In this document: in pieces, positions 660 through 58,883 of the stretch
Position numbering within the stretch: the stretch's first letter is position 1
Layout: the number at the start of each line of letters is the position of its first letter
Made by a program: the position numbers and the translations under genes
DNA from: an uncultured Pseudomonadota bacterium
GTDB taxonomy: Bacteria > Babelota > Babeliae > Babelales > RVW-14
Assembly: GCA_964527595.1 (NCBI GenBank)
Contig: CAZGPI010000002.1
Coordinates: forward strand, 27,225 to 91,224
Direction of reading: 5' to 3'
Length of the DNA stretch: 64,000 bases
Notes under the pieces: generated by a model
What the model saw: the letters and a program-made list of their open reading frames with translations, nothing else
Told to the model about the DNA's origin: nothing
The model's database searches: none

Positions 660-771
660 TCATATTCCTTTCCTTACTTTTTATACAAATAAACTAGCAT
701 TAATCAAAAAAATGGGCAAAATAATAAAAAGAGATTTTTTTAATAGCAAGACGATAAGGCGGAGAAAGAGT

Positions 772-1716
772 ATGGAGAGTAGGCTATTATCGGTAGTTAT
801 TCCGCTCTTTAATGAGGAAGAAAACATTGTCCCTCTTTGTGAGGAACTGATTCCGATTCTAAAAAAACTAAAAAATTTTACATCATATGAATTGGTAATG
901 GTCAATGACGGAAGTACCGACACTTCACTTAACCTTCTTAAGTCGCTTGCCGAAAAAGATAAGAATGTTAAGGTAATTTCATTCACCCGTAATTTTGGGC
1001 ATGAGTCTGCTACCTATGCTGGAATTATCAATGCTAAGGGTGATGCTGTTGTGCTTATGGATGCTGATCGCCAAGATCCACCTGAACTTATATTTGAATT
1101 CGAAAAAGAATTTTTGCAAGGATACGATATTGTTTTTGGTCAACGAACAAAGCGCTTGCGTGAAAGTTGGCTAAAAAAAGTGACATCAAAACTTTTTTAT
1201 CCACTATTTAAATTTCTTACCAAGGTTGATATGCCTCGCAATGTCGGGGATTTTTGTTTATTGAGCCGCCGCGCCGTTAATATGATTAAGCAACTTCCCG
1301 AACGTGCCATTTTCGTGCGCGGACTTATTTATTGGTTGGGTTTGCCTAAAAAAGCGGTACCATTTATTCGGCGTGAGCGTGGTGCCGGGACAACAAAATA
1401 CAATTATTTCAAGCTAACCGTTTTTGCGTTGGAAAATATTATCTCATTTTCAACGACTCCTATTTATTGGCTCATATTTTTTTCACTGGTGGTTATTGGG
1501 CTTTGTTTAGTTGGAATGACGATGGCTCTTTTGATGCATATTTTCGGATTAGTGGTTATGACAGGATGGACGTCATTGATTATCTGCATGTTGTTTTTAT
1601 TTGCGACAACATTGTTTTTCGTTGGCTTAATTGGTTTGTATGTTGGAAAAATTTTTCAAGAAGTAAAGCAGCGCCCTATCTTTTTGGTGGGTGAAAAAAT
1701 TAACATTGATATTTAG
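772..1716 (+). CDS. GT2 polyprenyl-phosphate glycosyltransferase (ArnC/GtrB/Dpm1-like) with C-terminal TM helices
   Basis: LSVVIPLFNEEENI, VNDGSTD and MDADRQDP (DxD-type) motifs, plus two hydrophobic C-terminal helices. Start moved to ATG 772, which has GGAG 9 nt upstream; the ORF-track start is 712. The stop codon TAG 1714-1716 is part of a repeat copy. Confidence 0.8.
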   Translation: MESRLLSVVIPLFNEEENIVPLCEELIPILKKLKNFTSYELVMVNDGSTDTSLNLLKSLAEKDKNVKVISFTRNFGHESATYAGIINAKGDAVVLMDADRQDPPELIFEFEKEFLQGYDIVFGQRTKRLRESWLKKVTSKLFYPLFKFLTKVDMPRNVGDFCLLSRRAVNMIKQLPERAIFVRGLIYWLGLPKKAVPFIRRERGAGTTKYNYFKLTVFALENIISFSTTPIYWLIFFSLVVIGLCLVGMTMALLMHIFGLVVMTGWTSLIICMLFLFATTLFFVGLIGLYVGKIFQEVKQRPIFLVGEKINIDI

Positions 1717-1741
1717 GGAGGGGTGGGAGGGAACGGCCCAC
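1714..1741 (+). repeat. GC-rich stem-loop repeat, short form, copy 1
   Basis: TAGGGAGG-G-GTGGG-AGGGAACGG-CCCAC. Its TAG is the stop codon of the GT2 gene. The next ATG (1752) is 10 nt after the stem. Confidence 0.9.
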
Positions 1742-1751
1742 TTAAATAATT

Positions 1752-3541: not shown

Positions 3542-4726
3542 ATGAAAAAAGCTTTAATTACAGGAATCACCGGACAAGATGGTTCGTACCTTACCGAATT
3601 TCTTCTTTCAAAAGGGTATGAAGTTCACGGAATTATTCGTCGAGCTTCTTCTTTTAATACTCAGCGGATTGACCATATGTATGTTGATCAACATGAGCAA
3701 GAAGCTCGATTCTTTTTGCATTATGGTGATTTATCTGATGCCGGATGTCTTCAAGACATTGTGAGTGCGGTAATGCCTGACGAGGTTTATCACTTGGGTG
3801 CGCAATCACATGTTAAAGTCTCCTTTCAGATGCCCGAATTTACGGCGAATGTGACGGGACTTGGAACCTTGCGTTTATTAGAGACACTTCGTCGATGTGC
3901 TCCTAATGCAAATTTTTATCAGGCATCGTCATCAGAAATGTTTGGTGCTGCGGGTGCGCCCCAAAATGAAAAGACGCCTTTTTATCCACGTAGTCCATAT
4001 GCCGTTGCGAAAGTCTATGCTTATTGGATTGCAGTGAACTATCGAGAAGCTTACGGCTTATTTGCGTGTAATGGCATCTTGTTTAATCACGAGAGCCCTC
4101 GCCGCGGCGAAACATTTGTAACAAGAAAAATAACTCGAGCATTGGTCAATATCATTGCTGGCAAGCAAAGCGTTCTTTATTTAGGTAATCTTAATGCCAA
4201 GCGTGATTGGGGTTTTGCTCCTGAATATGTTGAAATGATGTGGTTGATGCTGCAGCAAAATACACCAAATGATTATGTGGTTGGCACAGGGCAGAGCCAT
4301 ACGATTAAGGAATTTGTTGAAGCTGCATTTGCTTACGCTGGCATTGAGCTTGCATGGGAAGGTGATGGCGTTGACGAACGAGGTATTGTAAGTGCAATAA
4401 ATTCTCCGGGGAGGGGCGGGAGGGAACGGCCCGCATCAATTAATAATATAAAAGTCGGCGACGCGTTAATAAAAATCGACCCCCGCTATTTCAGACCAAC
4501 AGAAGTTGATCACTTACAGGCCGACATCTCTAAAGCAAAAGAACTTCTATGCTGGCAACCACGCGTAACCTTTCATGAGCTGGTTAAAATAATGGTTGAC
4601 TACGACCTCAAATTTGCTGGTCTTGAGCCGGTTGGTGATGGTATTGCAATAGGCGAAAAGAAGGATTTTACCTATACATCACATTCGGTAACATGGACTT
4701 ATCATGAACATGAAAATTGTGTATAG
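3542..4726 (+). CDS. gmd: GDP-mannose 4,6-dehydratase
   Basis: [41 protein letters not shown] and [17 protein letters not shown] are all classic Gmd motifs. The gene carries an in-frame repeat-derived insertion ([12 protein letters not shown]) in a variable loop. Confidence 0.95.
4408..4435 (+). repeat. GC-rich stem-loop repeat, short form, copy 2 (in-frame inside gmd)
   Basis: GGGGAGG-G-GCGGG-AGGGAACGG-CCCGC-A, translated as GRGGRERPA. Confidence 0.9.
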
Positions 4727-4745
4727 AAAGGGATAATGCGCACAT

Positions 4746-4798
4746 TAGGGAGATGCAGGAGGTTGAGCCTGCCCCGGACTTTGATCCGGGGGCCTGCA
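4746..4798 (+). repeat. GC-rich stem-loop repeat, long variant, copy 3 (gmd-fcl spacer)
   Basis: TAGGGAGA-TGCAGG-AGG...inner hairpin CCCCGGA-CTTTGA-TCCGGGG...G-CCTGCA. The fcl ATG is 13 nt after the outer stem. Confidence 0.8.
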
Positions 4799-4811
4799 TA
4801 TATAAAGAATA

Positions 4812-11697: not shown

Positions 11698-13464
11698 TCA
11701 TTCGTGAGCAACAAACTGTTGCTTTTCATAATCCAAGGTAATTACTAAGGGTTTTTGTTTAAGATGTTTTTGATCAAAGGTAAGGGTTAGGTCGGTGACA
11801 ATACCTAAAACACTCTGATGAACAGTTTTCGCACCGAGAGATAGATAATTATCAGATAGCGAAAAGTTTATTTTTTGTGGATTAGTTGATGTTAAGCGAA
11901 CGCTTGTTGGTGTATTGGTTATAGTAAAGTAATTTTTTGTATAGTAGGGTGCGCAGCGCATATACCAGCCAGCATGTTCTAAGACATTTGAATTATTCTG
12001 GGTGAGCATAGTTGATGGATCATAATAAACAGGATTTGTTGGAGGAGTTAAAAATAACCAGGCAGCTTGTTCGATTCCGGTACCAAATCCGTCGAGTGGA
12101 AACGCAAGAAAACATAAAGGGCGTGTACCTGAGGTGATTCGCTGGTCATTGGCGAGAGCCAAAAAGGCCTTCTTCATCGTAAAAAGTTTTGTTTCGCGGG
12201 TGCGTAAGTTTGTGTAGGTAAAGAAGGCGCATAGGCCAATAAGGGCAGTACATACAATAGTAATTATTACGTTTATGTATTTGCGGATAGGGATAGGGCG
12301 TTTCCCCCTGAAAAATGAATATATGCTTGTACTTAAAACTGCGAACAAGACAAAAAGAAATGGAGAGGCTTCGTGAAAATACCGTGGGCTATAGGCGCCA
12401 AAAAGTGATGGCCAGAGCATGAGTAGATAGCTAGCGCCGAGGAATAAAAGTAGGAATTTATGTTTATTGCGCCAAAAAAGTATTGCAATAACGAGTGTGG
12501 CAATAAGTAATAAGCTAAGGCGCAGACATTTATGTCCATAAGGGAGCCATGAGAGTGAGAGTGAATCGTAGATACAAACAAGGACTTCGTTAAAACGTGA
12601 AGTTATTTTTGAAAAAATAGTGAAGGCTGAGGATATAGTAAAATTATAGAGCAGGCCGCTCCAGCCGTCGCCCAGGTGGCTATTGCCGGCAGGCCCTCCT
12701 GCACCTCCCTGGAAAAGTTTATGAAACGGATAAAGCCATATGCGAATTGCAAGATATCCGAGTGCTGCTAAACCGTGGGCAACTGGTGCCCATGATATTT
12801 TTTTCTGATACAACCAGCAGCCGCCAAAAAGTATTGCAGGAAATACTATTGCTGTTTCACGGGTAAATAGAGCAATCGTGAAAAACAGTGTCGAAAAAAG
12901 TAAGTAAATGTATTGGCGTCGATCTAGAAAATAGTTGAGCATGATTATGGTAAGCATAAGCAACAAGACATTCAGATAATATTGAAAATTTGCTGGTGCA
13001 CCAAAGCGAAAACCAATTTGTGGGTGCAGGGCAAAAAGAAGCGCAAAAAAAAGTGCAGACGGCCAACCAGAAAACCATGTAAGGATATTGAAAAGAATGG
13101 TTGTATTGAGTGCGTGCAAAAAAACGCTTACCAAATAATAAGCGTAAGCATTAAGGCCGAAAAGCCAATAAGCACAAGCAAAATAAGCGCAATGAATTGG
13201 GCGAAAATAAACACTTAAGAAGTTTAACTTATGAATAGTTGCTGCGCCATACGGTGTATAAAATTGGTGGTGCGATGGGTAAAAGTATTTGTTAACGTTG
13301 CCTTCGATAAAATGGCTCCAAAGCGTTTGCCAGGATTGCATTGTTTTGCCCAGAGCAATGCATGAAAAATCATCACCGTTAAACCACCAGCTTGAGAAAG
13401 GGAGGCCTAAAAAGCAAAAAACAAAGAAAAAAAGCGCAAACGAAATGATAACTTTTTTATTCAT
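11698..13464 (-). CDS. GT-C-like polytopic membrane glycosyltransferase, family A paralog 1 (PMT/TMTC-like F-x-x-DD-[FW]-x-x-I loop motif)
   Basis: At least 10 TM segments. The first loop has WWFNGDDFSCIAL. Paralogous to 13467..14933 and 36169..37824, sharing the LGLPF..W.F..DD start and the SPRY/SSRY region. Contains an in-frame long-form repeat (QGGAGGPAGNSHLGDGWSGL). Confidence 0.6.
   Translation of the reverse strand: MNKKVIISFALFFFVFCFLGLPFSSWWFNGDDFSCIALGKTMQSWQTLWSHFIEGNVNKYFYPSHHQFYTPYGAATIHKLNFLSVYFRPIHCAYFACAYWLFGLNAYAYYLVSVFLHALNTTILFNILTWFSGWPSALFFALLFALHPQIGFRFGAPANFQYYLNVLLLMLTIIMLNYFLDRRQYIYLLFSTLFFTIALFTRETAIVFPAILFGGCWLYQKKISWAPVAHGLAALGYLAIRIWLYPFHKLFQGGAGGPAGNSHLGDGWSGLLYNFTISSAFTIFSKITSRFNEVLVCIYDSLSLSWLPYGHKCLRLSLLLIATLVIAILFWRNKHKFLLLFLGASYLLMLWPSLFGAYSPRYFHEASPFLFVLFAVLSTSIYSFFRGKRPIPIRKYINVIITIVCTALIGLCAFFTYTNLRTRETKLFTMKKAFLALANDQRITSGTRPLCFLAFPLDGFGTGIEQAAWLFLTPPTNPVYYDPSTMLTQNNSNVLEHAGWYMRCAPYYTKNYFTITNTPTSVRLTSTNPQKINFSLSDNYLSLGAKTVHQSVLGIVTDLTLTFDQKHLKQKPLVITLDYEKQQFVAHE
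12651..12712 (-). repeat. GC-rich stem-loop repeat, long form, copy 4 (in-frame inside GT-C-like gene)
   Basis: The reverse complement reads CCAGGGAGGTGCAGGAGGGCCTGCCGGCAATAGCCACCTGGGCGACGGCTGGAGCGGCCTGC. It has 3 differences from copy 6 over about 58 nt. Confidence 0.9.
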
Positions 13465-18751: not shown

Positions 18752-19834
18752 TTATAGGGAGGTGCAGGAGGGCTTGCCGGCCATAGCCACCTGGGCGACG
18801 GCTGGAACGGCCTGCGGTAGATTATTGATTTTATTTTCTTGAGCAAAATAGTTTTTATACCAAGCTACTGTTTCTTCAAGCCCTTTGCGAACGCCGTATT
18901 TTGCATGCCATCCAAGAACGGTATGTGCTTTTTTTGAGCAAAGATGTTGGGCTGGAATTTCATTGCAGGCCATGTTTTTGATTATTGGGGTAAGGTGGTT
19001 AGCGTTCATGAGATCCAAAATTTCATGCACCATTTCAACAACGGTGAATGGGTGGTCGGTACTGAAGTTGAAACATTGGCCGACTATTAACGGATTTTCC
19101 ATTGCTTGGGCAAGGGTAAGGTAAGCGTCAACCACGTCTTTTACATAAATGTAATCGCGAACAAATTGGCCATTTGATCTAATTACAGGGGCTTGGTTAT
19201 TAAGAATAGCTTTGATGGTTCCAGGTATTATGCGATTAAGGTGAAAATCACCGCCACCAAAAAAATTTCCACATCGTGTTACGCAAACCGGAAGTTTAAA
19301 CGTATGGAAATACGATTGAGCTATCAGGTCGGTGCAGCTTTTTGAAACATCATAAGGGTGTTGGCCTTGCAGCGGAGCATCTTCGGTATAGGGTAATTTT
19401 TCTTGTGCTCCATAGGCTTTATCGCTTGAAGCAACAACGATGCGTTTGACCCATGGGCTTAAGCGGCAAGCTTCCAAAAGGTTCCATGTTCCTTCGATAT
19501 TTGACCTGAATGTTGAGATCGGTGAGCGATTTGCATAACCGACAATTGCCTGGGCGCCTAAGTGGAAAACTGTTTCAATATCACTTTCATTCAGAACGCG
19601 AGTGAGTAGGTTTTGATCAAGAAGGTCGCCGATAATGACGGATGTTTTTTTATCCAACTGTTGCTGAAAAAATACTGAATGTGAAATGAGATCACGTATT
19701 AAAACAAAAACGTTGGCTTCTTGCTCAATAAGCTCTTGAACAAGCCAGGGGCCTAGTAATCCAGTTGCTCCGGTTACTAAAACATTTCTGTTTTTCCAGT
19801 ATTTTTTTTCATTTGTATAATTTTCCACGAGCAA
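18752..19834 (-). CDS. rfbG: CDP-glucose 4,6-dehydratase
   Basis: WKNRNVLVTGATGLLGPWL, ASSDKAYG and HPYDVSKSCTDL (YxxxK). Sits directly downstream of the cytidylyltransferase. The C-terminal tail is encoded by a long-form repeat. Confidence 0.85.
   Translation of the reverse strand: MLVENYTNEKKYWKNRNVLVTGATGLLGPWLVQELIEQEANVFVLIRDLISHSVFFQQQLDKKTSVIIGDLLDQNLLTRVLNESDIETVFHLGAQAIVGYANRSPISTFRSNIEGTWNLLEACRLSPWVKRIVVASSDKAYGAQEKLPYTEDAPLQGQHPYDVSKSCTDLIAQSYFHTFKLPVCVTRCGNFFGGGDFHLNRIIPGTIKAILNNQAPVIRSNGQFVRDYIYVKDVVDAYLTLAQAMENPLIVGQCFNFSTDHPFTVVEMVHEILDLMNANHLTPIIKNMACNEIPAQHLCSKKAHTVLGWHAKYGVRKGLEETVAWYKNYFAQENKINNLPQAVPAVAQVAMAGKPSCTSL
18755..18817 (+). repeat. GC-rich stem-loop repeat, long form, copy 6 (rfbG / GT2 junction)
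   Basis: TAGGGAGGTGCAGGAGGGCTTGCCGGCCATAGCCACCTGGGCGACGGCTGGAACGGCCTGCGG. This equals the short form with about 33 nt inserted between AGGG and AACGG. Confidence 0.9.
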
Positions 19835-22927: not shown

Positions 22928-24340
22928 CTAAAAGCGCTTAACTTCCTCAAGGTCATCAAAGTGGTGTTTTTCACCTTTGATAAGATAATAGTTTTCGTGA
23001 CCCTTGCCCAAAAGCGCAATAATCGAATGCGGTTGAGCATTTTGTGTCGCAAGGGTTATCGCTTTTTTGCGGTCAAGTTCAACAATAACAGAAGTCATTT
23101 TTTCTTTTGGAATGCCGGCAACAATTTCATTGGCAATTGCTTGACGATCTTCGTCGCGCGGATTGTCGTCGGTAACAATAATAAGATCAGCATAGTCTGC
23201 CGCAAGTTTGCCCATTACCGGGCGCTTGGTGGTGTCTCTATTACCGCCGCAACCAAAAATCACAATAAGATGCGATGTTAAAGGGCGTAATGTTTTGAGC
23301 ACTTCGTCAAATGCTCCTGGCTTATGAGCAAAATCGACAAATGCCTTGGCGCCATTTTTAAGGGTGTGCATTTGTAGGCGTCCTGGAACTCCAGCAAATG
23401 TTGCAAGTGCTTGAGTAATTATATTTGAAGTTACGCCGAGCTCTGAACAAATCAATTTGGCCATACAAACATTGTAATTATTGTATGCTCCAACGAGCGC
23501 CGGGCATAAGGGAGGTGCAGGAGGGAACGGCCTGCAAGCTTCTTCTAAATAAAAGATATGATGCTGTGTTTGCGATTCGCTTGTTTCTTGTTGCTCAAAG
23601 CCGAACGCAATAACTTTTTGCTTTAATCCATTTTCATCAAAATACTCAACCGCTTTTTTGCCCCATGGATTATCAATGTTTATAACGGCAATGCCATTTT
23701 GTTTTAATTGCTTGAATAGCGCAGCTTTGGTTTGAAAATAGTGCTCCATGCTTGGATGAAAATCCATATGTTCTGGGCTAAGATTGGTGAATCCAACAGC
23801 ATCAAATTCAATGCCGTGGATCCGTGAAAGTGCGATAGAATGTGAGGATATTTCCATGATAACGTAATCGATTTTCTCTTTTACGCACTCGGCTAAAAAC
23901 ATTTGAATATAGTCGGCCGCGGGGGATGTTAAGGTGCTTTCTTCTTCTTTGTCGCCAATTTTGTTTTTAATAGAACCAATGAGCGCTGTTTTATACCCGG
24001 CCTGGTTTAGCAGATGGTCAACAAGATAGGTTGTTGTGGTTTTGCCAGCGGTGCCGGTAATTCCAATAAATTTGAGTTTTTGTGCGGGATTATTTAAAGC
24101 TTGAGCCGCATAAGCGGCAAGTGCTTTGCGTGTATCATCGACAAAAATGATTTGAATGTGTGCAGGGATGTCTTTAGGGATGTATGATTTGTCTACAATA
24201 ATCGTTGTCGCACCGCGGTTAATGGCTTTTGGGATGTAAGTAGCTCCATCTTCTTTATGGCCTTTTATTGCAACGAACGTTGACCCCGGTCCGACGTGGT
24301 TGGTGTTACAAGTTACAGGATAAATAACAGGAATAAACAT
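22928..24340 (-). CDS. murE: UDP-N-acetylmuramoyl-L-alanyl-D-glutamate--2,6-diaminopimelate ligase
   Basis: GITGTAGKTTT P-loop, EISSHS, the TNLSPEHMDFH region and the DDNPR motif (VTDDNPRDED), which is typical of the DAP-adding MurE. Carries an in-frame repeat-derived insert (ACRPFPPAPPLCP). Confidence 0.9.
   Translation of the reverse strand: MFIPVIYPVTCNTNHVGPGSTFVAIKGHKEDGATYIPKAINRGATTIIVDKSYIPKDIPAHIQIIFVDDTRKALAAYAAQALNNPAQKLKFIGITGTAGKTTTTYLVDHLLNQAGYKTALIGSIKNKIGDKEEESTLTSPAADYIQMFLAECVKEKIDYVIMEISSHSIALSRIHGIEFDAVGFTNLSPEHMDFHPSMEHYFQTKAALFKQLKQNGIAVINIDNPWGKKAVEYFDENGLKQKVIAFGFEQQETSESQTQHHIFYLEEACRPFPPAPPLCPALVGAYNNYNVCMAKLICSELGVTSNIITQALATFAGVPGRLQMHTLKNGAKAFVDFAHKPGAFDEVLKTLRPLTSHLIVIFGCGGNRDTTKRPVMGKLAADYADLIIVTDDNPRDEDRQAIANEIVAGIPKEKMTSVIVELDRKKAITLATQNAQPHSIIALLGKGHENYYLIKGEKHHFDDLEEVKRF
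23507..23536 (+). repeat. GC-rich stem-loop repeat, short form, copy 7 (antisense, in-frame inside murE)
   Basis: TAAGGGAGG-TGCAGG-AGGGAACGG-CCTGCA, read on the opposite strand as CRPFPPAPPL. Confidence 0.9.
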
Positions 24341-26546: not shown

Positions 26547-27533
26547 ATGAGCAAGACGGTATTAGTTACTGGTGGGGCTGGCTATATAGGATCGCATACC
26601 GCTTATCTTCTTCATAATTGTGGCTATCAAGTTATTATCCTAGATAATCTATTATACAATCAACCATTTGCCTGTCCATGGGCAACCTTAATTAAGGGAG
26701 ATTTTGCAGATTATGGCATATTGGATGCTCTATTTGCGAAATATCCTATAGACGTTGTTATGCATTTTGCTGCATTTATCGAGGTTGGACAATCGGTTAT
26801 TCAACCTCAGCGTTTTTATGAAAACAATGTTATAAAAACCATTCACTTACTGAATAAAATGCTTGAACATGGGGTGAGTAAAATTGTGTTTTCATCAAGC
26901 TGTGCGGTATATGGACCGCCTCATTATGTCCCGATAGATGAAAATCATCCTTTTGCTCCAATGAGTCCATATGGAAAAAATAAATTAATTATCGAATATG
27001 TATTACAAGATTATGCACAGGCATATGGGTTGCAATATGTTTCATTGCGCTATTTTAATGCTGCCGGTGCATTAATTGATAAGAATCTTGGGGAGTGGCA
27101 TAACCCAGAAAGCCATGTAATCCCCAATGTTATGCGGGCACTTTTACTTGATAAAGAATTTTACATATTTGGTAACGATTATGAAACGGTTGATGGTTCA
27201 TGTGTTCGTGATTATGTACATGTGCTTGATATTGCCCAAGCTCATGTACTTGGGGCTGAATATTTTCATGCGCATTCAGATTCTCAAATTTTCAATTTGG
27301 GGTCTGGTGTCGGTTATACCGTAAAGCAACTTATCAAGGCCGCTGAAAAAATTGGTGGCAAAAAAATCAAGATTACTATAGCCGATAGACGTCCGGGTGA
27401 TGCCAAAATACTTGTGGCAGACAATGCAAAAATAAAAAAAACACTTGGATGGCAGGATAAGTATTCAGATTTGAATACGATAATGCAGTCGGCTTATGAG
27501 TGGGAAAAAAGGAGATTAAGCGATGGAGCATGA
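26547..27533 (+). CDS. galE: UDP-glucose 4-epimerase
   Basis: MSKTVLVTGGAGYIGSH, SSSCAVYG, SPYGKNKLIIE (YxxxK) and LRYFNAAGA. ATG 26547 has GGAGAG upstream; the ORF-track N-terminal extension from 26457 is unlikely. Confidence 0.9.
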   Translation: MSKTVLVTGGAGYIGSHTAYLLHNCGYQVIILDNLLYNQPFACPWATLIKGDFADYGILDALFAKYPIDVVMHFAAFIEVGQSVIQPQRFYENNVIKTIHLLNKMLEHGVSKIVFSSSCAVYGPPHYVPIDENHPFAPMSPYGKNKLIIEYVLQDYAQAYGLQYVSLRYFNAAGALIDKNLGEWHNPESHVIPNVMRALLLDKEFYIFGNDYETVDGSCVRDYVHVLDIAQAHVLGAEYFHAHSDSQIFNLGSGVGYTVKQLIKAAEKIGGKKIKITIADRRPGDAKILVADNAKIKKTLGWQDKYSDLNTIMQSAYEWEKRRLSDGA

Positions 27534-28923
27534 AGTAAAAATTGGTGAGATTATAGCATCGAATAAAAAATTCTTGTTTATGCTTTTCATTTTAGCCTTT
27601 GTTATTCGAGCAGCTGTTTTTATAGGGTATTTAGGCAAAAATGAAAACTATTGGCAGGTTGATTCTCAGACGTATCATCTTGTTGCTCAGCAAGTTGCGC
27701 AAGGAAATGGACTTGTATCGGCCGACGGAAGCCCGCATTTTTATAGGCTTCCTGGGTATCCTGTTTTTCTAGGTTTTTTTTATTACTTGTTTGGCGTTGA
27801 TACGAAAAAGGTTTTATGGCCGCAAATTGTTGTTGCTTCGGCAATTCCTATTTTGGTTTTTTTGCTATCAATGATTTTATTCCCCGGGGCGCTTATTATT
27901 GCTAAATGTGCTTCTTTGTGGACCGTTTTTCACCTAGGGTTTATCTTATTCGCCGGTTTTTTTATGACTGAATCGCTCTTTATTTTTTTATTTTTACTGT
28001 TTTTGATTTTTTTCTTTTCTGGTAGGTATCTTTTTTGGGCTGGAACCTTTTTGGGGTTAGCCTCGCTCTTTCGGCCCGTTGGGCATTATCTCTTGGTTCT
28101 TGCTGGTATTATGCTCATTTTTTCACATGATTGGCTAAGGCATAAAATTATCAAATTTGCAACGTTGGCAGGAGCCTGGCTTATACCCGTTTCTTTTTGG
28201 TTGATAAGAAATTTTGTGTTAACGGGGTACCTTTTTTTTCATACCTTGCCAGGCGGCCATTTTTTGTATCTATCGGCGGCTCGTGTTGCGATGCATACTC
28301 AAAATTGCTCTTATCAAGAAGCTCGGCAGCATTTGCATGATGAAGTGCATCAGAATTTGGCAAAAAAAGAAGCTGAGCTTGGGCGACCCTTGTTTGAGAT
28401 TGAAAGCTGTAACGTGCATGAACAGTTGGCAATTAAGTACTTTAAGCAGAGCCCTTTAATCGCCCTGAAAAATTGGTGTACTGATATGTTTCGGACGATG
28501 TTTTCGCTGCATTCGGCTGAGCTTTTATATTTAGACGCAGGGCATAAAACGATCGATTATTTTAAAAAAGAACGTTCAGGCTGGAATATGTTTGAGCGTT
28601 ATTTGTTTCCACAAACCGAGTCTTCGCTGTTAAGGGTTATTGTTTGGAGTGAAATATTTCTTTTTATTTTGATGTTAATCGGGTTCCTAGGATATATGAT
28701 TAGAGCTCTCTTATGTGCTTTGCGAGGAAAGCGAGAGTCTTTAGTCAATTTGGGTAAATGCCTACCATTCATAGCGCTTTTTATTGTCATAGCCCTTTCT
28801 GGTGGTTACGCGCGTATGAGGTTGCCCATTGAACCGTTGGCGATTATTTTATCCATGGCTGGATGGTTTGGTCTAAAAAAAAGCAGGAGGAGGTTAGTTG
28901 AACCAAAATCGTGCATGGACTAA
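27523..28923 (+). CDS. GT-C membrane glycosyltransferase, family B paralog 1 (ArnT/PMT_2, GT39/GT83-like)
   Basis: VDSQTYHLVAQQVAQGNGL...FYRLPGYPVFLGFF first-loop signature, at least 10 TM segments, and a conserved C-terminal GGYARMRLPIEP. Confidence 0.7.
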   Translation: MEHEVKIGEIIASNKKFLFMLFILAFVIRAAVFIGYLGKNENYWQVDSQTYHLVAQQVAQGNGLVSADGSPHFYRLPGYPVFLGFFYYLFGVDTKKVLWPQIVVASAIPILVFLLSMILFPGALIIAKCASLWTVFHLGFILFAGFFMTESLFIFLFLLFLIFFFSGRYLFWAGTFLGLASLFRPVGHYLLVLAGIMLIFSHDWLRHKIIKFATLAGAWLIPVSFWLIRNFVLTGYLFFHTLPGGHFLYLSAARVAMHTQNCSYQEARQHLHDEVHQNLAKKEAELGRPLFEIESCNVHEQLAIKYFKQSPLIALKNWCTDMFRTMFSLHSAELLYLDAGHKTIDYFKKERSGWNMFERYLFPQTESSLLRVIVWSEIFLFILMLIGFLGYMIRALLCALRGKRESLVNLGKCLPFIALFIVIALSGGYARMRLPIEPLAIILSMAGWFGLKKSRRRLVEPKSCMD

Positions 28924-30265
28924 ATATCTAAGTATTATTCCCTTATTACTCGTTATTTTTAGTTGCGCTTTTTTAATAAGGTTTATTTTTTTTATAATAT
29001 TTCTTATTAAAAACCCTTGCATGCTTGCTTTTGATTCAAAGCATTATCACGATATGGCCGTTCAATTGGTACATGGGTATGGTTTTATGTCGGTTAATGG
29101 GGTGCCTTTTTTTTATAGATTGCCCGGATATCCGCTTTTTTTGGCCGCTTGTTATAAGTTGTGTCACCTAAATGTTATAGCTACTTTAATGGTACAACTT
29201 TTTTTCGGGTCTTTGATTCCTGTTTTAATGTATGTTTTTTCTTTAATTATATTGCCAACCCGGCGACTGGTTGCTTTTGGTGCGGCTTTTTTTGCTTGTT
29301 TGCACGTTGGATTTATTGTCTATTCTGGCCTTATATTATCAGATATGATGTTTTTGCTTCTTTGGATGTTTTTTTTAATATGTTTTTTTTATGCGTTAAA
29401 AAGCAAAAGGATTTTGATCTTTCTGTTTGCCGGGGTAGCTCTTGGTATCGCGTCATTAATAAGGCCAATGGGTTTACCACTTTTTTTGGTGGTATTGCTT
29501 ATTATTTTTCTTTCTAGGCGAGCCTTTTTGGTTAATCTTAAGAGTGGTCTTTTTTTATTCTGTGGATGGATAAGTATTGTTGGGTGGTGGATTGTAAGAA
29601 ATTTCTTGCTCACTGGATATTTATTTTTCCATACACTTTCAGGGCCTCATTTTTTAAACCATTCTGCGGCCCGTATAATTATGATGAAAAATAATGTTTC
29701 TTATGAGCAAGCAAAGGGTACTGCATACCAACGATTTGATGAATTGATTGCAGAAAAAGAGTTGATTGAGAATCGTCAGCTTCTTGAAATTGAAAGGGTT
29801 ATTGTCGCCGAGAAACTTACACTGAGTGTTATGCTTTCAAATCCAATGCTTGCGATAAAACATGCCATGGGAAATGTTTTTAAAACATGCTTTTCCTTAT
29901 ATTCTTCAGAGCTTTTATTTATCGATTCTGGTGGCCAGCTGCCTCCATATAGTTGCAATAGAACGCTCAAGGATATGATAATGCGATTTTTAATGCCAAA
30001 TATTAATGCTGGTTATCTGCGATATATTATTTGGGGAGAGATTGCGTTGTATTTGCTAACGTTAATTGGTTTTTTTTGTTTTGTTATAAACTCATTTTGG
30101 TTTCGCCGTAAGTTATTTTTGGTATTAAGCAGTTTGTTGGTAATGATCTTTTTTGTGGGCATAACGTTTGCCTGTGGTTATGCCCGATTTCGCTTACCCA
30201 TTGAGCCATTTTTGATCGTTTATGCATGTGCGTTTTTGGTTGATTTTTTTAAAATTAAGGTTTAG
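28898..30265 (+). CDS. GT-C membrane glycosyltransferase, family B paralog 2
   Basis: FDSKHYHDMAVQLVHGYGF...FFYRLPGYPLFLAACY and a C-terminal CGYARFRLPIEP. TTG start with AGGAGGAGG upstream. Overlaps the previous gene by 26 nt. Confidence 0.7.
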   Translation: MNQNRAWTKYLSIIPLLLVIFSCAFLIRFIFFIIFLIKNPCMLAFDSKHYHDMAVQLVHGYGFMSVNGVPFFYRLPGYPLFLAACYKLCHLNVIATLMVQLFFGSLIPVLMYVFSLIILPTRRLVAFGAAFFACLHVGFIVYSGLILSDMMFLLLWMFFLICFFYALKSKRILIFLFAGVALGIASLIRPMGLPLFLVVLLIIFLSRRAFLVNLKSGLFLFCGWISIVGWWIVRNFLLTGYLFFHTLSGPHFLNHSAARIIMMKNNVSYEQAKGTAYQRFDELIAEKELIENRQLLEIERVIVAEKLTLSVMLSNPMLAIKHAMGNVFKTCFSLYSSELLFIDSGGQLPPYSCNRTLKDMIMRFLMPNINAGYLRYIIWGEIALYLLTLIGFFCFVINSFWFRRKLFLVLSSLLVMIFFVGITFACGYARFRLPIEPFLIVYACAFLVDFFKIKV

Positions 30266-30279
30266 TCGTAGGCGTTTTG

Positions 30280-31665
30280 ATGTTGTTAAGGATTGCTAGT
30301 CAAAATAAATTATTTTTAAGTCTTTTATTTCTTTTTTCTTTTTCGCTAAATTTGGCGTATCTATTTTTTTTCACAACCAAAACGTCGCATTTTGTTTGTC
30401 AAGATTCAAGCCAGTATGATAGCCTTGCCAAACAGATTTACGATAACAATGGAATTGTTGATGCTAATGGTCAGCCAGCGATTTCCCGGGTTCCCGGGTA
30501 CTCTTTTTTTCTCGCGGGCTGCTATAAGATTTTTGGATATAATCATGAACGTGCGATGATACTACAAAGTTTTTTGGCTTCTATGATTCCAGTTTTAACC
30601 TTTTTGTTGAGCTTGATCTTATTTCCTAACGTATTGTTATTGGCAAAAATTAGTGCTTATTTTATGGCAATGAGTAATGGCTTAATGCTTTATGCATCAA
30701 TGGTTATGTCAGAAGTTGTCTTTACTGTTTTTTTTCTATTATTTTTATTGTTTTTTATTTTAAGATTGCGCTTATTTTGTTCCGGTGGATTTAAGGAGAA
30801 TGCATCAGGAAAAATCTTTTTCCTTGCTGGGTTGTTTTTAGGAATTGCGTCATTAATTCGGCCGGTTGGACATTTTTTGATTATAGCCGCGTTGTTTTTG
30901 CTTCTTCTTTCATCTTTTGATTTAGCAAAAAAACTGAAGTATATGGTTTTATTGCTGGTTGCCTGGGGCTTATTTGTTTTACCGTGGCTTCTAAGGAGTT
31001 ATTTGCTGACTGGGTCGATTCTTTTCCATACAATGCCCGGCAATCATTTTTTAGATTTTCTTGCGCTTGAATCAATAAGCTATGCGCGCCAATGGACGTT
31101 TGGGGAAACAAAAGTTTTTTTAGAAAAAGAGGTTGCCAAAGAATATGCCGTGACTAAGATTCCAATTAATGAAAAAAACTCCGCAGCACGCGATATGTAT
31201 ATTAAGTTAGCTGTAGCTAAGAAATATATTTTGATGTACCCAATGCAAACGATAGAGCGATGTTTTGCTAATATCTTAAAAACAATTTTTGGTTTAAATG
31301 TTAGTTTCGTTTTACATAAGCTTGTAAAATTTCCTAGCTATGGTGGGAAAACCAGCTTTATCGAAAAAATAGTTTTTTTCCTTTTTCCTTGCACGAATGA
31401 TAAGTTTATTTGGTGCATTGTTTACTTTGAATTGCTTTGGTTGATAGTTCTGTTGTTGGGCTTCGGTGGTTTTTTGGTACAAAGTTTTTTCAATACAATC
31501 TATTTATGTAATTGTTTGAAGATTTTGCCGTTTATCGCTGTTATGTTGTTTTTATCGTTAGGCTCTGGGTTTGCTCGCCTAAGGGTGCCGATTGAGCCGC
31601 TTATGATTATTTTTTCAATGCATTTTTGGCTTAATTTTTTGAGTGCTGGTAGATTAAAACATTAA
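30280..31665 (+). CDS. GT-C membrane glycosyltransferase, family B paralog 3
   Basis: QDSSQYDSLAKQIYDNNGI...ISRVPGYSFFLAGCY and a C-terminal SGFARLRVPIEP. Third tandem copy. Confidence 0.7.
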   Translation: MLLRIASQNKLFLSLLFLFSFSLNLAYLFFFTTKTSHFVCQDSSQYDSLAKQIYDNNGIVDANGQPAISRVPGYSFFLAGCYKIFGYNHERAMILQSFLASMIPVLTFLLSLILFPNVLLLAKISAYFMAMSNGLMLYASMVMSEVVFTVFFLLFLLFFILRLRLFCSGGFKENASGKIFFLAGLFLGIASLIRPVGHFLIIAALFLLLLSSFDLAKKLKYMVLLLVAWGLFVLPWLLRSYLLTGSILFHTMPGNHFLDFLALESISYARQWTFGETKVFLEKEVAKEYAVTKIPINEKNSAARDMYIKLAVAKKYILMYPMQTIERCFANILKTIFGLNVSFVLHKLVKFPSYGGKTSFIEKIVFFLFPCTNDKFIWCIVYFELLWLIVLLLGFGGFLVQSFFNTIYLCNCLKILPFIAVMLFLSLGSGFARLRVPIEPLMIIFSMHFWLNFLSAGRLKH

Positions 31666-42022: not shown

Positions 42023-42048
42023 TAGCGAATAATTAGTAAAAACAAAAA

Positions 42049-42085
42049 GCCCCTGCATTTAAATGCAGGGGCTTTTTGTTTTTTG
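42049..42085. terminator. Bidirectional rho-independent terminator between convergent genes
   Basis: GCCCCTGCAT-TTAA-ATGCAGGGGC, with an A-run upstream (AAAAACAAAAA) and a T-run downstream (TTTTTGTTTTTTG). Confidence 0.85.
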
Positions 42086-43007: not shown

Positions 43008-44309
43008 TTATTCGACTATTTGGCCAGTTTCAACCAATTGGCTGTTTTTAGTGGATACATACATAGCTACAAGTATCCAGACGCCGACAATACCAAGAGA
43101 GATTAATGATCCGTAGAACATTAGGCTCGCCATGTTGGTAAAGACTGCGTTTATACTAGAACCGGCAGCTTTTGAGGTGCGGCCACCAAATCCGTCAATC
43201 CAGCTTTTGGCTTTAAATTTAACGTCTTTGCTGGTTGGGATGTACATGATTTCTTTGCAAGGGTTATTTAATGCATAGCTTAAACCCTTAATGGCAACCA
43301 TTGCGCCAAAAAGAACCCAGAGGGTAGGATTAAACCATACATAACAAATAACGGCACCAACGGCTATTGGGAATGCAATTAAAGAAAAACGTAGGCCGAA
43401 GTTACGGATGATATAACTGGTTCCAACCAACGCGAAAACAAACGCAAGTAAGTTAGCGCACTGACCATACAAACCAAGAAATTCGGTAACTTTTTCGGTT
43501 GAATGATACACTTCGTCTGCAATGAACTTCATTTGGTAATCGATAATTGTTCCGATAACCTCGTAAAGTGTTGCGATACCAAGAATACCAAGAAGGTATG
43601 GTTGCGAAAAGAGCAAACGCAAACCTTCAGTGAAGCCGGTTGATTTCTTTTTCTCGGCGAGAGGTACGGCGGCGACTTGTGGTTGTGAGCGGATAAACCA
43701 GTACACCATCATAGGAACCATTGATACACCAATAGCAATAATAACCGAAAGCATAGGCATACCAATTGCGGTTGCATGTTTTGCAAATTCTGGGCCGGCA
43801 ATAGAACCGATTTGTGCTCCAGAAATAACCAATCCGTAACCTCTTTTTGCCGAAGCTGAATCGGTTGTGCTGTTCAAGAACGACCAGAAAAGTGCTGGTA
43901 ATAGGGAACCAAAACTTTCAATGGTCAAATAAATTACCCAACCAAAAATACGGTATTTGTTTGGTGTTGTGTTAGCAACGCCAATGGTAGGATGTGCTAA
44001 GAAATATGCTGCAACGGCAAAAAACACAACATAAAAAGCTGGCAAGATGTAAAGAAGCTTATGTTTTTCAACCATGTCGACGAGTTTTGAATAAAGCAAA
44101 ATGAGTGGAACTAAGAAAAGAACCGAAGCCATCTTGGCGTATGGAATATAAGTTTTGCCAACGATGTTCATAAAAAGTGCGTCTTTAAGTGGACGCATAA
44201 GCCAGTAAGTACCAATAAGAAATAAGAATGTTCCGGCTAATAGCCCAAATTTCTTATATTCTTCTGTTGATAAATCACCCCATAACCAACGGACAACCTT
44301 GCAGGCCAT
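43008..44309 (-). CDS. TLC/Npt-family nucleotide (ATP/ADP-type) transporter 1
   Basis: LMRPLKDALF, IESFGSLLPALFWSFLNS...SAKRGYGL and YALNNPCKEIMYIPTSKDVKFKAKSWIDGFGGRTSKAAG parallel the Rickettsia/Chlamydia Tlc motifs I recall ([48 protein letters not shown]...GGRLGKSGG). Confidence 0.85.
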   Translation of the reverse strand: MACKVVRWLWGDLSTEEYKKFGLLAGTFLFLIGTYWLMRPLKDALFMNIVGKTYIPYAKMASVLFLVPLILLYSKLVDMVEKHKLLYILPAFYVVFFAVAAYFLAHPTIGVANTTPNKYRIFGWVIYLTIESFGSLLPALFWSFLNSTTDSASAKRGYGLVISGAQIGSIAGPEFAKHATAIGMPMLSVIIAIGVSMVPMMVYWFIRSQPQVAAVPLAEKKKSTGFTEGLRLLFSQPYLLGILGIATLYEVIGTIIDYQMKFIADEVYHSTEKVTEFLGLYGQCANLLAFVFALVGTSYIIRNFGLRFSLIAFPIAVGAVICYVWFNPTLWVLFGAMVAIKGLSYALNNPCKEIMYIPTSKDVKFKAKSWIDGFGGRTSKAAGSSINAVFTNMASLMFYGSLISLGIVGVWILVAMYVSTKNSQLVETGQIVE

Positions 44310-44416
44310 AAAAAAACCCTTCTAAAAAAATATTAAAAAAGAAACTGTTCGCACACAACGAAAAATCTCCACAACTCCTTCAGTATAGCACAATCGGCTT
44401 ATACTCCCAATAAAAA

Positions 44417-47979: not shown

Positions 47980-50538
47980 ATGATTGCAAAAATTTTAGCA
48001 AAAGTATTTGGAACCAAGAATGAACGGGAATTAAAACGTCTTCAGCCAATGGTTGAAAGGATTAATTCGTTCGAGCCATTAATTCGTGAGTTATCAAATT
48101 TAGATTTGATTGCAAAAACAAATATATTTAGAGAGCGCATATCTCGTGGCGAATCGCTTGATAGCGTTCTATTTGAGGCTTTTGCCGTGGTGCGTGAAAC
48201 AAGTCATCGTTTTCGCAATGAGCGTCATTACGATGCACAATTGGTTGGCGGTATTGTGTTGCATGAAGGTAAAATTGCTGAAATGAAAACCGGTGAAGGT
48301 AAGACGCTGGTTGCAACGTTGCCGTTGTATTTGAATGCATTGTCCGGCAAGGGGACGCATCTTATTACGGTTAACGATTATTTGGCCCGCCGCGATGCTG
48401 AATGGATGAATCTCATTTACCAAAACCTTGGCCTTGAAGTTGGTGTGCTGCAAAACCAGATGGAGGATGCTGAGCGCAAAAAGGTTTATAACTCAGATAT
48501 CACCTACGGAACCAATAGTGAATTTGGTTTTGACTATCTGCGCGATAACATGAAATTTGATAAAAGTGACCTTGTTCAACGAGAACTTAACTTCTGTATT
48601 GTAGACGAAGTCGACTCAATTTTGGTTGATGAGGCGCGTACGCCACTCATCATTTCTGGTCCAAGTGAAAAAGGAAGTAACTTATACAAAGAGGCTGATC
48701 AAGCCGTATTAACTTTACGTAAAGAAGATTACGATATTGATGAAAAAGCTCGATCGGTACATTTGTCCGAATTGGGCACCGATAAGATTGAGCATTTTTT
48801 CAAATTAGACAATCTTTATGCGCCAGAAAATATCTTGGCTCTTCACCATGTTTCTCAGGCTTTGCGTGCTCATACGCTATTTAAAGTCGACGTTGATTAT
48901 GTGGTGCGTGAAGGCGAAGTGTTAATTGTTGACGAGTTTACTGGACGCATTTTGCCAGGTCGCCGCTATAGCGATGGATTGCACCAAGCTCTTGAATCAA
49001 AAGAAAAGGTTAAGGTTGAGCGCGAGAACCAGACCTTGGCTTCCATTACTTTGCAAAATTATTTTAGAATGTACAAAAAACTTGCCGGTATGACCGGTAC
49101 GGCAGAGACCGAAGCGGCCGAATTTTGGAAAATTTATAAACTTGCCGTTATCGTCATTCCAACCAATCGTCCAATGATTAGGCGCGATGAGGCCGATATC
49201 GTATTTTTGACGCGTGAGGACAAGTTTGGTGCAGTAGCTCAGGACATTAAAGAATGTAATAAAATTGGCCAGCCCGTACTTGTTGGTACCGTATCTATTG
49301 AAACATCAGAATACTTGAGTCATTTATTGGCCCAACAAGGCGTTGCTCATAATGTTTTGAACGCTAAGCAACATGAACGTGAAGCTGAAATTGTTAAAGA
49401 AGCTGGTGAGCGCGGCAAAGTGACGATTGCAACTAATATGGCCGGTCGTGGTACTGACATTAAGTTGGGTGAAGGGGTTCGTGATCTTGGCGGGTTACGT
49501 ATTATTGGTACCGAGCGGCACGAAAGCCGTCGTATTGATAATCAGTTGCGTGGGCGTTCTGGTCGTCAAGGGGATAAGGGTTCATCAAAATTTTATTTAT
49601 CGCTTGAAGATGACTTGATGCGTATTTTTGGTGGCGAACGGCTCAAGAAGACCATGGAACGTATTGGTATGAAGCCGGGCGAAAGCATTGAACACCGCAT
49701 GGTTTCGCGCAGTATTGAAAAAGCACAAGAGCGTGTCGAGAAGCATAACTTTGATATACGTAAACATTTGCTTGAATATGACGATGTATTAAACCAACAA
49801 CGCTCAATTATTTATCAATACCGCCGAGATGTTCTTGAGGGCGGAGAGCTTATCGTGGGTATTATCAAAGAAATGATAACCGATGTTGTGCATAGGTTAT
49901 TTGCTATTTATTGTCCGCAGGGCGGGGCTTCTGATGAGGAGCGCGCAGAGGTTATCCATGCTCTTGAAAAAGTGACCGGTATGCCCAAGCAAGTCTTTGA
50001 GCGTATTCAATTGCCAAAAAATCAAACAGGATTTGAGATAGTTGTGGCAGAGTTTCTTGTCTATCAATATGAACAAATTCGTGCGGCGATGGCGGCAAAG
50101 ATGCCAGAACAACCTGACTTTGTTGATCGAGCCGAAAAATGGGTTTTACTTGAGACTATTGATCATGCCTGGAGATTACATCTTTTGAGTATTGATCACC
50201 TTAAAGAAGGTATCGGTTGGCGCGGTTATGGATCAAAGAATCCTTTGATTGAATATAAGCGCGAGTCATTTTTTGAATTTGAACGCATGATGGAACAAAT
50301 TAAGTGGGATATTCTTCAACGTGTTTTCCATATGCGTCCAGAGGATTATTCAATTGATGCTATTGAAGAAATAGAAGAAGAAAAAGAACAAGAATTGGCG
50401 GCATTGCAACTCGGTGGAGATGGAACCGGTAAGGTTGATGTTCGAACCGTTAAGCGTGTGCAGCCAAAGGTTGGGCGCAATGAATTATGTCCTTGCGGTT
50501 CAGGGAAGAAATACAAGCATTGTTGTGGCAAGAATTAA
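47980..50538 (+). CDS. secA: Preprotein translocase ATPase SecA
   Basis: MIAKILAKVFGTKNEREL start, MKTGEGKTLVATLP, DEVDSILVDEARTPLIISG and TNMAGRGTDIKLG. C-terminal zinc motif CPCGSGKKYKHCCG. The stop codon TAA is part of a repeat copy. Confidence 0.97.
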   Translation: MIAKILAKVFGTKNERELKRLQPMVERINSFEPLIRELSNLDLIAKTNIFRERISRGESLDSVLFEAFAVVRETSHRFRNERHYDAQLVGGIVLHEGKIAEMKTGEGKTLVATLPLYLNALSGKGTHLITVNDYLARRDAEWMNLIYQNLGLEVGVLQNQMEDAERKKVYNSDITYGTNSEFGFDYLRDNMKFDKSDLVQRELNFCIVDEVDSILVDEARTPLIISGPSEKGSNLYKEADQAVLTLRKEDYDIDEKARSVHLSELGTDKIEHFFKLDNLYAPENILALHHVSQALRAHTLFKVDVDYVVREGEVLIVDEFTGRILPGRRYSDGLHQALESKEKVKVERENQTLASITLQNYFRMYKKLAGMTGTAETEAAEFWKIYKLAVIVIPTNRPMIRRDEADIVFLTREDKFGAVAQDIKECNKIGQPVLVGTVSIETSEYLSHLLAQQGVAHNVLNAKQHEREAEIVKEAGERGKVTIATNMAGRGTDIKLGEGVRDLGGLRIIGTERHESRRIDNQLRGRSGRQGDKGSSKFYLSLEDDLMRIFGGERLKKTMERIGMKPGESIEHRMVSRSIEKAQERVEKHNFDIRKHLLEYDDVLNQQRSIIYQYRRDVLEGGELIVGIIKEMITDVVHRLFAIYCPQGGASDEERAEVIHALEKVTGMPKQVFERIQLPKNQTGFEIVVAEFLVYQYEQIRAAMAAKMPEQPDFVDRAEKWVLLETIDHAWRLHLLSIDHLKEGIGWRGYGSKNPLIEYKRESFFEFERMMEQIKWDILQRVFHMRPEDYSIDAIEEIEEEKEQELAALQLGGDGTGKVDVRTVKRVQPKVGRNELCPCGSGKKYKHCCGKN

Positions 50539-50565
50539 GGGAGGTGCAGGAGGGAACGGCCTGCA
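50536..50565 (+). repeat. GC-rich stem-loop repeat, short form, copy 8 (secA-murI spacer)
   Basis: TAAGGGAGG-TGCAGG-AGGGAACGG-CCTGCA. Its TAA is the secA stop codon. The murI ATG is 12 nt after the stem. Confidence 0.9.
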
Positions 50566-50577
50566 ATACAATTAATC

Positions 50578-53633: not shown

Positions 53634-53663
53634 TAGGGAGGGTATGGGAGGGAACGGCCCACA
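53634..53663 (+). repeat. GC-rich stem-loop repeat, short form, copy 9
   Basis: TAGGGAGG-GTA-TGGG-AGGGAACGG-CCCA-CA, between the PQ-loop gene and the NurA-like gene. Confidence 0.85.
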
Positions 53664-53709
53664 AGATAGTTTGCTAAAATTTTTTTAAAATAACTCGGAT
53701 ACAAAAGTC

Positions 53710-54891: not shown

Positions 54892-54993
54892 ATACATAAC
54901 GATTCTTTTGGGTAAATTTGCAAAATTTACAAATCATTTGATATCTTAAATTTGTCATTTTTACAATTTGGGCTATTAAGGAGTCGGGGTGTT

Positions 54994-58815: not shown

Positions 58816-58841
58816 GGTAGATCCTTAAGGCTTTTGTTAAT

Positions 58842-58870
58842 TAGGGAGGTGCGGGAGGGAACGGCCCGCA
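58842..58870 (+). repeat. GC-rich stem-loop repeat, short form, copy 10 (hisS-ychF spacer, antisense to transcription)
   Basis: TAGGGAGG-T-GCGGG-AGGGAACGG-CCCGC-A. Confidence 0.9.
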
Positions 58871-58883
58871 TACCAATTTTTAC

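Follow-up and report, generated by a model that had tools for sequence, protein, structure and literature searches.

A short GC-rich hairpin repeat, probably a REP/RPE-like passenger, is translated within murE of a putative Dependentiae bacterium

The Rickettsia palindromic elements (RPEs) are palindromic repeats of an obligate intracellular bacterium that lie in frame within unrelated housekeeping genes, at positions compatible with the fold of the protein, as well as between genes (PMC10969869). In another intracellular bacterium, Coxiella, the small non-autonomous repeats named QMITE occur in 3' untranslated regions (UTRs), some of them fused in frame, and their truncated copies resemble repetitive extragenic palindromic (REP) sequences (PMC10969869). 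Here we describe a family of GC-rich hairpin repeats in a 64-kb window (the whole stretch of DNA analysed, 64,000 nt of contig CAZGPI010000002.1 from the metagenome-derived assembly GCA_964527595.1), one copy of which is embedded in frame, on the opposite strand, in murE, the gene for UDP-MurNAc-tripeptide synthetase.

In behaviour the repeat is closest to RPEs, being found in frame in unrelated genes at tolerated sites (murE, gmd, the C-terminus of an epimerase gene and the open reading frame (ORF) 11698..13464). The likeness is one of behaviour: RPEs measure about 100-150 bp, encode a conserved peptide and belong to Alphaproteobacteria, whereas the repeat described here, from Dependentiae, has 27 nt (50-60 nt when nested) and is translated in both orientations and in several frames. 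Its form is nearest to that of REPs and their paired arrangements (REP doublets forming hairpins, REPINs), which are GC-rich imperfect hairpins of 20-40 nt with many dispersed copies, often past stop codons in operons, and a uniform consensus (PMC3116915, PMC3184786). On the 5' side of the stem, where classical REPs have a single-stranded conserved motif, GTAG, the repeat has a conserved box of different sequence, GGGAGG. REPs are extragenic and usually form inverted pairs (bacterial interspersed mosaic elements, BIMEs, or REPINs), whereas the present copies are single, share one orientation in eight of nine cases and are translated in four; moreover, no gene for a REP-associated tyrosine transposase (RAYT, or TnpA-REP) lies within the window. 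Mitochondrial GC clusters can be carried inside a coding gene, as in var1. The GC clusters and repetitive hairpin elements of yeast and sponge mitochondria are short GC-rich hairpins that nest, spread in AT-rich genomes and occasionally fall within coding genes, as the repeat does (PMC4464245, PMC2800124); these are eukaryotic organelle genomes with unrelated sequences, and the analogy is one of behaviour only. Two further classes differ from the repeat described here. Miniature inverted-repeat transposable elements measure 100-400 bp and have terminal inverted repeats and target-site duplications, neither of which was found here, and DNA uptake sequences (DUS/USS) have a short, invariant core and occur about once per kb in roughly equal orientations, against about one copy per 7 kb and the bias in orientation seen here. 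No description of such repeats was found in the literature on Dependentiae/TM6.

The copy in murE shares its complete sequence with another copy 27 kb away. The 30-mer TAAGGGAGGTGCAGGAGGGAACGGCCTGCA occurs without mismatches at 23507-23536 and at 50536-50565, on the + strand in both cases, and the identity between the two copies runs to 31 nt (TAAGGGAGGTGCAGGAGGGAACGGCCTGCA(A)); a third copy of this kind, at 58841, has 3 mismatches. No match was obtained in 100 dinucleotide-preserving shuffles, in line with a chance expectation of 0. The initial annotation had stated that the murE copy is nucleotide-identical to the copy between secA and murI and that it lies antisense and in frame within murE, and both statements hold: the surrounding ORF (context ...YLEEACRPFPPAPPLCPALVGAYNNYN...) runs uninterrupted for 470 aa, and on the murE strand the repeat is read as ACRPFPPAPPLCP, with the core peptide CRPFPPAPPL. 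The frame, whose disruption would have pointed to a pseudogene, is collinear with MurE homologs over its full length. A + strand ORF of 62 aa inside murE (23425-23613) runs through the repeat in sense (..GIREVQEGTACKLL..) and is almost certainly spurious.

The 470-aa ORF has the Pfam domains of a MurE ligase (Mur_ligase, Mur_ligase_M at residues 94-294 and Mur_ligase_C at residues 320-447), matches solved MurE structures with E = 4e-81 and is 100% identical to a 470-aa NCBI protein (P0001), its best non-self match being 71-73% identical. Residues 268-280, encoded by the repeat, had been assigned to the junction between the central ATP-binding and the C-terminal domains; by the Pfam boundaries they lie instead inside Mur_ligase_M, about 40 residues ahead of Mur_ligase_C. 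There is no net insertion, the protein having 470 aa as compared with 471-478 aa in the relatives closest to it; native sequence has given way to the element: where P0002 reads ...HFELKQNNIHGIAIASEKFSDLTCPALFG, the window protein reads ...IFYLEEACRPFPPAPPLCPALVG, with one strand and loop replaced. We aligned 28 Dependentiae MurE sequences, the window's own included, and computed the invariant columns across them. The repeat-encoded residues fall in a hypervariable stretch just ahead of the invariant G284, N287 and N290; at the same position the relatives have 0-30 unrelated residues, and in four of the sequences the stretch is wholly lacking. An AlphaFold2 model of the protein, with this alignment as input (predicted local distance difference test score, pLDDT, 89; predicted template modelling score, pTM, 0.88) superimposes on solved MurE structures with template modelling (TM) scores of 0.85-0.87, its only low-confidence segment being residues 252-275. 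The murE copy occupies a dispensable surface loop, at a site tolerant of such sequence, and we infer that MurE carrying the element remains active.

Most relatives lack the element at this site, and the insert is not universal in MurE, distant homologs included: only two of 120 homologs carry it, that of the window and P0004 (L118, 71% identical). Empty murE sites, which the initial annotation had proposed to look for in relatives, are present at the DNA level in five of them (L117, L119, L120, L121 and L122). A distant Dependentiae MurE (P0027; L129:8845-8935) has, in the same variable region, an unrelated GC-rich hairpin of about 75 nt (GCGGCGC...GCGCCGC), read GQGAHEFPSGARGEEPEGRLEPCAAQ. 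Given that the P0004 copy and the P0027 hairpin lie in the same region, the murE loop is a recurrent acceptor.

The window holds nine copies of the repeat, eight of them on the + strand, against a chance expectation of about 0 (Table 1). The 27-nt unit consists of GGGAGG, a stem of 5-6 bp, the loop AGGGAACGG and the return stem. Six copies are of this short form (1713, 4406, 23507, 50536, 53634 and 58841). Two others, termed long-A (18754 on the + strand and 12648-12712 on the - strand), have a self-folding segment of 33 nt nested between the AGGG and the AACGG of the loop, and the remaining one, long-B (4745-4800), has a nested hairpin, CCCCGGA...TCCGGGG. The stem occurs in variants with matched changes on both arms (TGCAGG/CCTGCA, GCGGG/CCCGC and GTGGG/CCCAC). 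When 12 copies drawn from several genomes are aligned, 95.8% of the cells in the stem are paired and four of the six stem pairs show compensatory changes, with a covariation score that was reached in none of 500 shuffles, showing that the hairpin structure of the repeat is under selection.

Table 1. Repeat copies in the 64-kb window and the murE gene that hosts one of them.
Feature	Position	Strand	Context
Short-form copy, stem GTGGG/CCCAC	1713..1743	+	TAG at 5' edge is the stop codon of glycosyltransferase ORF 712..1716; next gene starts at 1752
Short-form copy, stem GCGGG/CCCGC	4406..4436	+	Sense and in frame in gmd; supplies 12 residues
Long-B form	4745..4800	+	Outer TGCAGG/CCTGCA stem around inner CCCCGGA...TCCGGGG; intergenic, directly 3' of gmd
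Long-A form	12648..12712	-	Only - strand copy; sense and in frame in membrane-protein ORF 11698..13464, read QGGAGGPAGNSHLGDGWSGLL
Long-A form	18754..18818	+	Epimerase/GT2 junction; antisense, forms the final 22 codons of the epimerase gene, C-terminus LPQAVPAVAQVAMAGKPSCTSL
murE (UDP-MurNAc-tripeptide synthetase), intact 470-aa ORF	22928..24340	-	Hosts a copy at residues 268-280
Short-form copy	23507..23537	+	Core 23510-23536, GGGAGG-TGCAGG-AGGGAACGG-CCTGCA; antisense to murE; translated (A)CRPFPPAPPL(CP)
Short-form copy	50536..50566	+	secA-murI spacer; leading TAA is the secA stop codon; identical to the murE copy
Short-form copy, imperfect stem	53634..53664	+	Intergenic, between PQ-loop and NurA genes
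Short-form copy, stem TGCGGG/CCCGCA	58841..58871	+	Intergenic between - strand ychF and hisS; antisense to transcription

Covariance models of Rfam 15 gave no match at the repeat copies, even at E<=10, and only two tRNAs were matched in the window. No T-tract lies 3' of any copy, and no intrinsic terminator was called at them in a scan of 49-60 kb. Ordinary terminators do exist in this genome, unlike the repeat, as indicated by a perfect palindrome of 23+23 nt between convergent genes at 42038-42083 (AAAAACAAAAAGCCCCTGCATTT / AAATGCAGGGGCTTTTTGTTTTT), which looks like a bidirectional intrinsic terminator. Terminal inverted repeats were not found, the stem lying inside the element, shifted by the GGGAGG box at its 5' end, and none of the window copies form head-to-head pairs of the REPIN/BIME kind. 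In a hand count of flanks, A precedes 14 of 17 copies at position -1 and TA precedes seven of the 17, with no consistent target-site duplication; the available empty and filled sites are too diverged for one to be defined. Three resemblances were considered and set aside. Copies 1713, 4406 and 53634 fit the G-quadruplex pattern G3N1-3G3N1-3G3N1G3 (at 1716-1731, 4408-4424 and 53636-53652, as G3-4 N1-3 G3-4 N1-3 G3 A G3); no such fit is seen in the copies of murE and of the secA-murI spacer, while the stem covaries in every copy. The FtsK orienting polar sequence (KOPS) motif GGGNAGGG occurs in copy 4406 only and was rejected, and the inner hairpin of long-B recalls a tRNA T-arm without any tRNA or tmRNA call, which we regard as a chance resemblance.

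The positions of the copies fall into a few kinds. The intergenic copies at 1713, 4745, 50536 and 53634 follow stop codons by 0-20 nt in what appear to be operons, and the start of murI is 12 nt past the hairpin at 50536. The four translated copies (those in murE, gmd, the epimerase C-terminus and ORF 11698..13464) are read in at least three frames and in both orientations. In gmd the segment contributed by the copy corresponds to a loop that varies relative to E. coli Gmd and is absent from plant Gmd; the ortholog of ORF 11698..13464 in L122 is without the QGGAGGPAGNSHLGDGWSGLL copy; and the epimerase stop codon adjoins the 5' end of the element at 18754, where in relatives the epimerase gene overlaps the next gene instead. 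The 27-mer is free of stop codons in all six frames, as are 41% of composition-matched shuffles, so its coding compatibility is mostly a consequence of GC-richness. The earlier proposal that the element is compatible with coding in both orientations is correct insofar as family members are translated both sense and antisense, and is weakened if taken as a special property of the sequence. Six of the copies are oriented in the sense of transcription and three antisense. The G-rich strand of the repeat lies on the + strand in eight of nine copies, and + is also the G-rich strand of the chromosome, the window having 39% G+C and a uniform GC skew of +0.14; the bias has a two-sided binomial p of about 0.04 by our own arithmetic.

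Copies in other genomes reveal gain, loss and decay. A pattern scan of genome contigs with GGGAGGN{3,6}GGAGGGAACGG, a loose pattern that gave mostly chance matches, in high-GC genomes, caught the relatives L047, L097 and L100; among the 116 matches listed, 11, these three included, close the AGGGAACGG loop with a stem of at least 5 bp, compared with 2.4 expected. L100 and L130 are from GCA_964561585.1, which is syntenic to the window at 49-58 kb with about 80% nucleotide identity, and L047 and L097 are from GCA_964495205.1, the genome of P0005, in which the murE site is empty. Both assemblies (L047, L097 and L120 in one, L100 and L130 in the other) are titled 'uncultured Pseudomonadota bacterium'; since their genes, 67-91% identical, are syntenic to those of the Dependentiae window, the Pseudomonadota label of these two metagenome-assembled genomes (MAGs) looks wrong. 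The copy between secA and murI is conserved at 28 of 28 positions in L100, with coding flanks about 85% identical, and the copy at 53634 is absent from the syntenic position of L100. At the epimerase/GT2 junction, the long-A form of the window is replaced by a canonical short form in L047, by an empty site in L117 and L122, and in L130 by a diverged short form (GGGGGG-TGCCGG-GGGGAACGA-CCGGTA), whose stem is kept through a change from A-T to C-G. The two copies in L097 lie in a divergent intergenic region beside an acetyl-CoA synthetase gene: a full copy on the C-rich strand, opposite to the bias of the window, and 20 nt upstream of it a partial copy (GAGCGGGAGGGAACAGCCCACTC; L097:2340-2422) that lacks the GGGAGG box. 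About 80 kb of sequence around murE from the genomes of P0002, P0003, P0006 and P0007 contained no copy. These filled and empty sites give the polarity of insertion and show turnover between genomes. Taken as a whole, the sequences indicate a lineage-restricted family whose copies are gained and lost, some decaying and others staying identical to the consensus.

The exact 27-mer of murE is also present in at least three other metagenome-derived sequences (L047, L100 and L116), the last being the one contig returned by a metagenome scan; a scan of viral sequences gave no matches. Because these sequences have the same 27-mer, the sequence common to the murE and secA-murI copies is the consensus of the family, and their identity gives no date for the murE copy. 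The identity alone is therefore no proof of the recent spread or gene conversion that had been suggested for it. Similar hairpins were seen in MAGs of unrelated bacteria: a 26/27 match to the core at the end of a contig with 59% G+C labelled Oscillospiraceae (L063:25-51, - strand), about 115 nt 3' of a Tex-like gene; a GGGAGG-stem-AGGGAACGG-stem copy 3 nt past a stop codon in a Vampirovibrionales MAG (L068:4732-4760, + strand); and hairpins of the same build in two Clostridia contigs (L008:2105-2130 and L074:6113-6138). Horizontal spread may account for them, as may convergence or contaminated bins. Two other window proteins, when looked up, yielded Logan contigs of 1.7-4.3 kb (L124-L128), among which L127 and L128, independent short-read contigs of the same organism, reproduce copy 1713 and begin or end at or beside copies (window positions ~1685 and ~4415). 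Such breaks are expected if a repeated 31-mer interrupts k-mer assemblies, and may explain why the MurE protein went unrecorded there.

We interpret the sequence in murE as a REP/RPE-like non-autonomous GC-rich hairpin repeat, carried as a passenger in a dispensable loop, and put the probability of this interpretation at roughly 0.6. Copies would persist only where they do little harm: directly past a stop codon, where two genes meet, or in frame within a hypervariable, dispensable part of a protein. The murE copy would have landed in the variable part of the middle domain immediately ahead of the invariant LxGxYNxYN helix, or reached it by recombination, a proline-rich coil from the element replacing one beta-strand and loop and leaving the enzyme otherwise intact. 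A trans-acting enzyme would generate the copies and keep them uniform, possibly aided by gene conversion, and might read the hairpin and the 5' GGGAGG box on single-stranded DNA, as do the REP/RAYT system and the HUH transposases of the insertion sequence (IS) family IS200/IS605. A conserved loop and 5' box joined to a freely covarying stem are the pattern expected if a protein recognises the hairpin in single-stranded form, and such an enzyme would also account for the bias towards one strand. Systems of these two kinds reportedly insert with a strand bias linked to replication; such a bias would fit the eight of nine copies on the strand equal in sequence to the lagging-strand template. Decay of the kind expected of repeats is seen in the imperfect stem at 53634, the partial copy in L097 and the diverged orthologous copy in L130.

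Several observations weigh against this interpretation. No transposase, HUH or RAYT enzyme is encoded in the 64-kb window, and the examined copies show neither terminal inverted repeats nor a consistent target-site duplication. The copies are never paired head to head, unlike REPINs and BIMEs, and their strand bias is only marginally significant, with the outside copy in L097 opposite to it. The 27-mer, moreover, varies unusually little among genomes with MurE proteins about 30% different from one another, and a repeat that is purely selfish and decays would not by itself lead one to expect this. This uniformity, together with the one-strand bias, suggests a specific protein partner. A bolder and rather speculative extension is that the 27-mer is the recognition site of a conserved protein reading single-stranded DNA, either a new REP/HUH-like partnership or a signal of replication polarity; the system would be kept up throughout Dependentiae, extend to a few unrelated bacteria and exert a pressure that makes essential enzymes such as MurE repeatedly carry the hairpin or its relatives in the same loop.

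The strongest of the rivals, although itself improbable, is a strand-polar DNA signal with a function for the host, comparable to Chi, KOPS or DNA-uptake sequences: a site for a chromosomal protein, its density and orientation tied to replication, which coding regions including murE accommodate. The placement of eight of nine copies on the G-rich, presumably leading, strand whatever the direction of the genes agrees with this, as do the 27-mer shared exactly by several genomes and the 28/28 conservation at the orthologous spacer within flanks of about 85% identity; the mixed orientation relative to transcription likewise favours a role at the level of DNA over one at the level of RNA. However, the density of about one copy per 7 kb is low, copies are missing from the ~80 kb of related genomes, decay of the orthologous copy in L130 has kept approximate pace with that of its flanks, and the copy in L097 stands on the C-rich strand. 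Known polar signals, in addition, are 5-12 nt long and lack hairpins, and the nested long forms resemble the behaviour of mobile elements.

That the repeat acts in RNA appears less probable still. It could be a hairpin of 3' UTRs with a part in mRNA protection or processing, or a Shine-Dalgarno-like GGGAGG with a hairpin that couples translation, the murE copy being an accidental by-product. In its favour, the intergenic copies lie 0-20 nt past stops in apparent operons not only in the window (1713, 4745, 50536 and 53634) but also in L100 and L068, and GGGAGG is Shine-Dalgarno-like; folding of the hairpin would place it 9-12 nt from the ATG of the following gene, at 1752 and at 50578. Three of nine copies are nevertheless antisense to local genes and four lie inside coding sequence, the T-tract, terminator calls and Rfam matches are all lacking, and a generic protective hairpin needs neither a conserved loop nor a 5' box.

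About equally doubtful is an ancestral origin of the murE copy, through one old insertion that the lineage of P0004 also has and that gene conversion keeps identical to other copies. The murE of P0004 does have a related element in almost the same place and orientation, and orthologous copies do persist in the clade. The P0004 copy is, however, of the long-B form, with another stem, displaced by 2 nt and read in a different frame; its GGGAGG end lies 1 nt from the conserved Cys codon, compared with 3 nt in the window. The intervening lineages of P0002, P0003, P0005 and P0006 are empty, and in a neighbour-joining tree, itself poorly resolved, the carriers P0001 and P0004 are not sisters. Two insertions at nearly the same spot of murE seem more likely than one old insertion. 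An assembly artefact or pseudogene, through a mis-join at the repeated 31-mer, is very improbable: although the source is a MAG, Logan contigs break near copies and the exact MurE protein has no match in the contig index, the sequence on either side of the copy is in-frame murE, collinear with homologs, the structural model has the MurE fold, P0004 has a similar insertion in another lineage and copy 1713 recurs in independent assemblies.

The named homologs of MurE and of the epimerase belong to 'Candidatus Babeliales', 'Dependentiae' and 'candidate division TM6', and two adjacent genes for TLC ATP/ADP translocases, a hallmark of energy parasites, lie at 43008-45751 (- strand). Homolog names, base composition and translocases fit an energy-parasitic Dependentiae bacterium as the host. 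Elsewhere in the window, three tandem paralogous ORFs of about 460 aa at 27523-31665 account for the direct-repeat families D2, D11 and D19 (spacing about 1390 nt), and their syntenic genes in relatives match PMT_2 glycosyltransferases. At 53710-57495 (+ strand), a gene for a NurA-domain nuclease is followed by an ORF of 847 aa without a Pfam match, possibly a HerA-like partner.

Selfish or partly domesticated hairpin repeats that survive within essential genes have been documented mainly for Rickettsia, and the same behaviour is now seen in a poorly studied phylum of intracellular parasites. The repeat is best read, by analogy, as a miniature counterpart in Dependentiae of the selfish DNA that Rickettsia carries within its genes; it has one fifth of the size of an RPE, is translated whichever way round it lies, and has a loop into which further hairpins are nested. 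In murE the variable stretch took up GC-rich hairpins in three separate lineages; it marks where the enzyme tolerates insertions and offers a handy locus for following the activity of the element.

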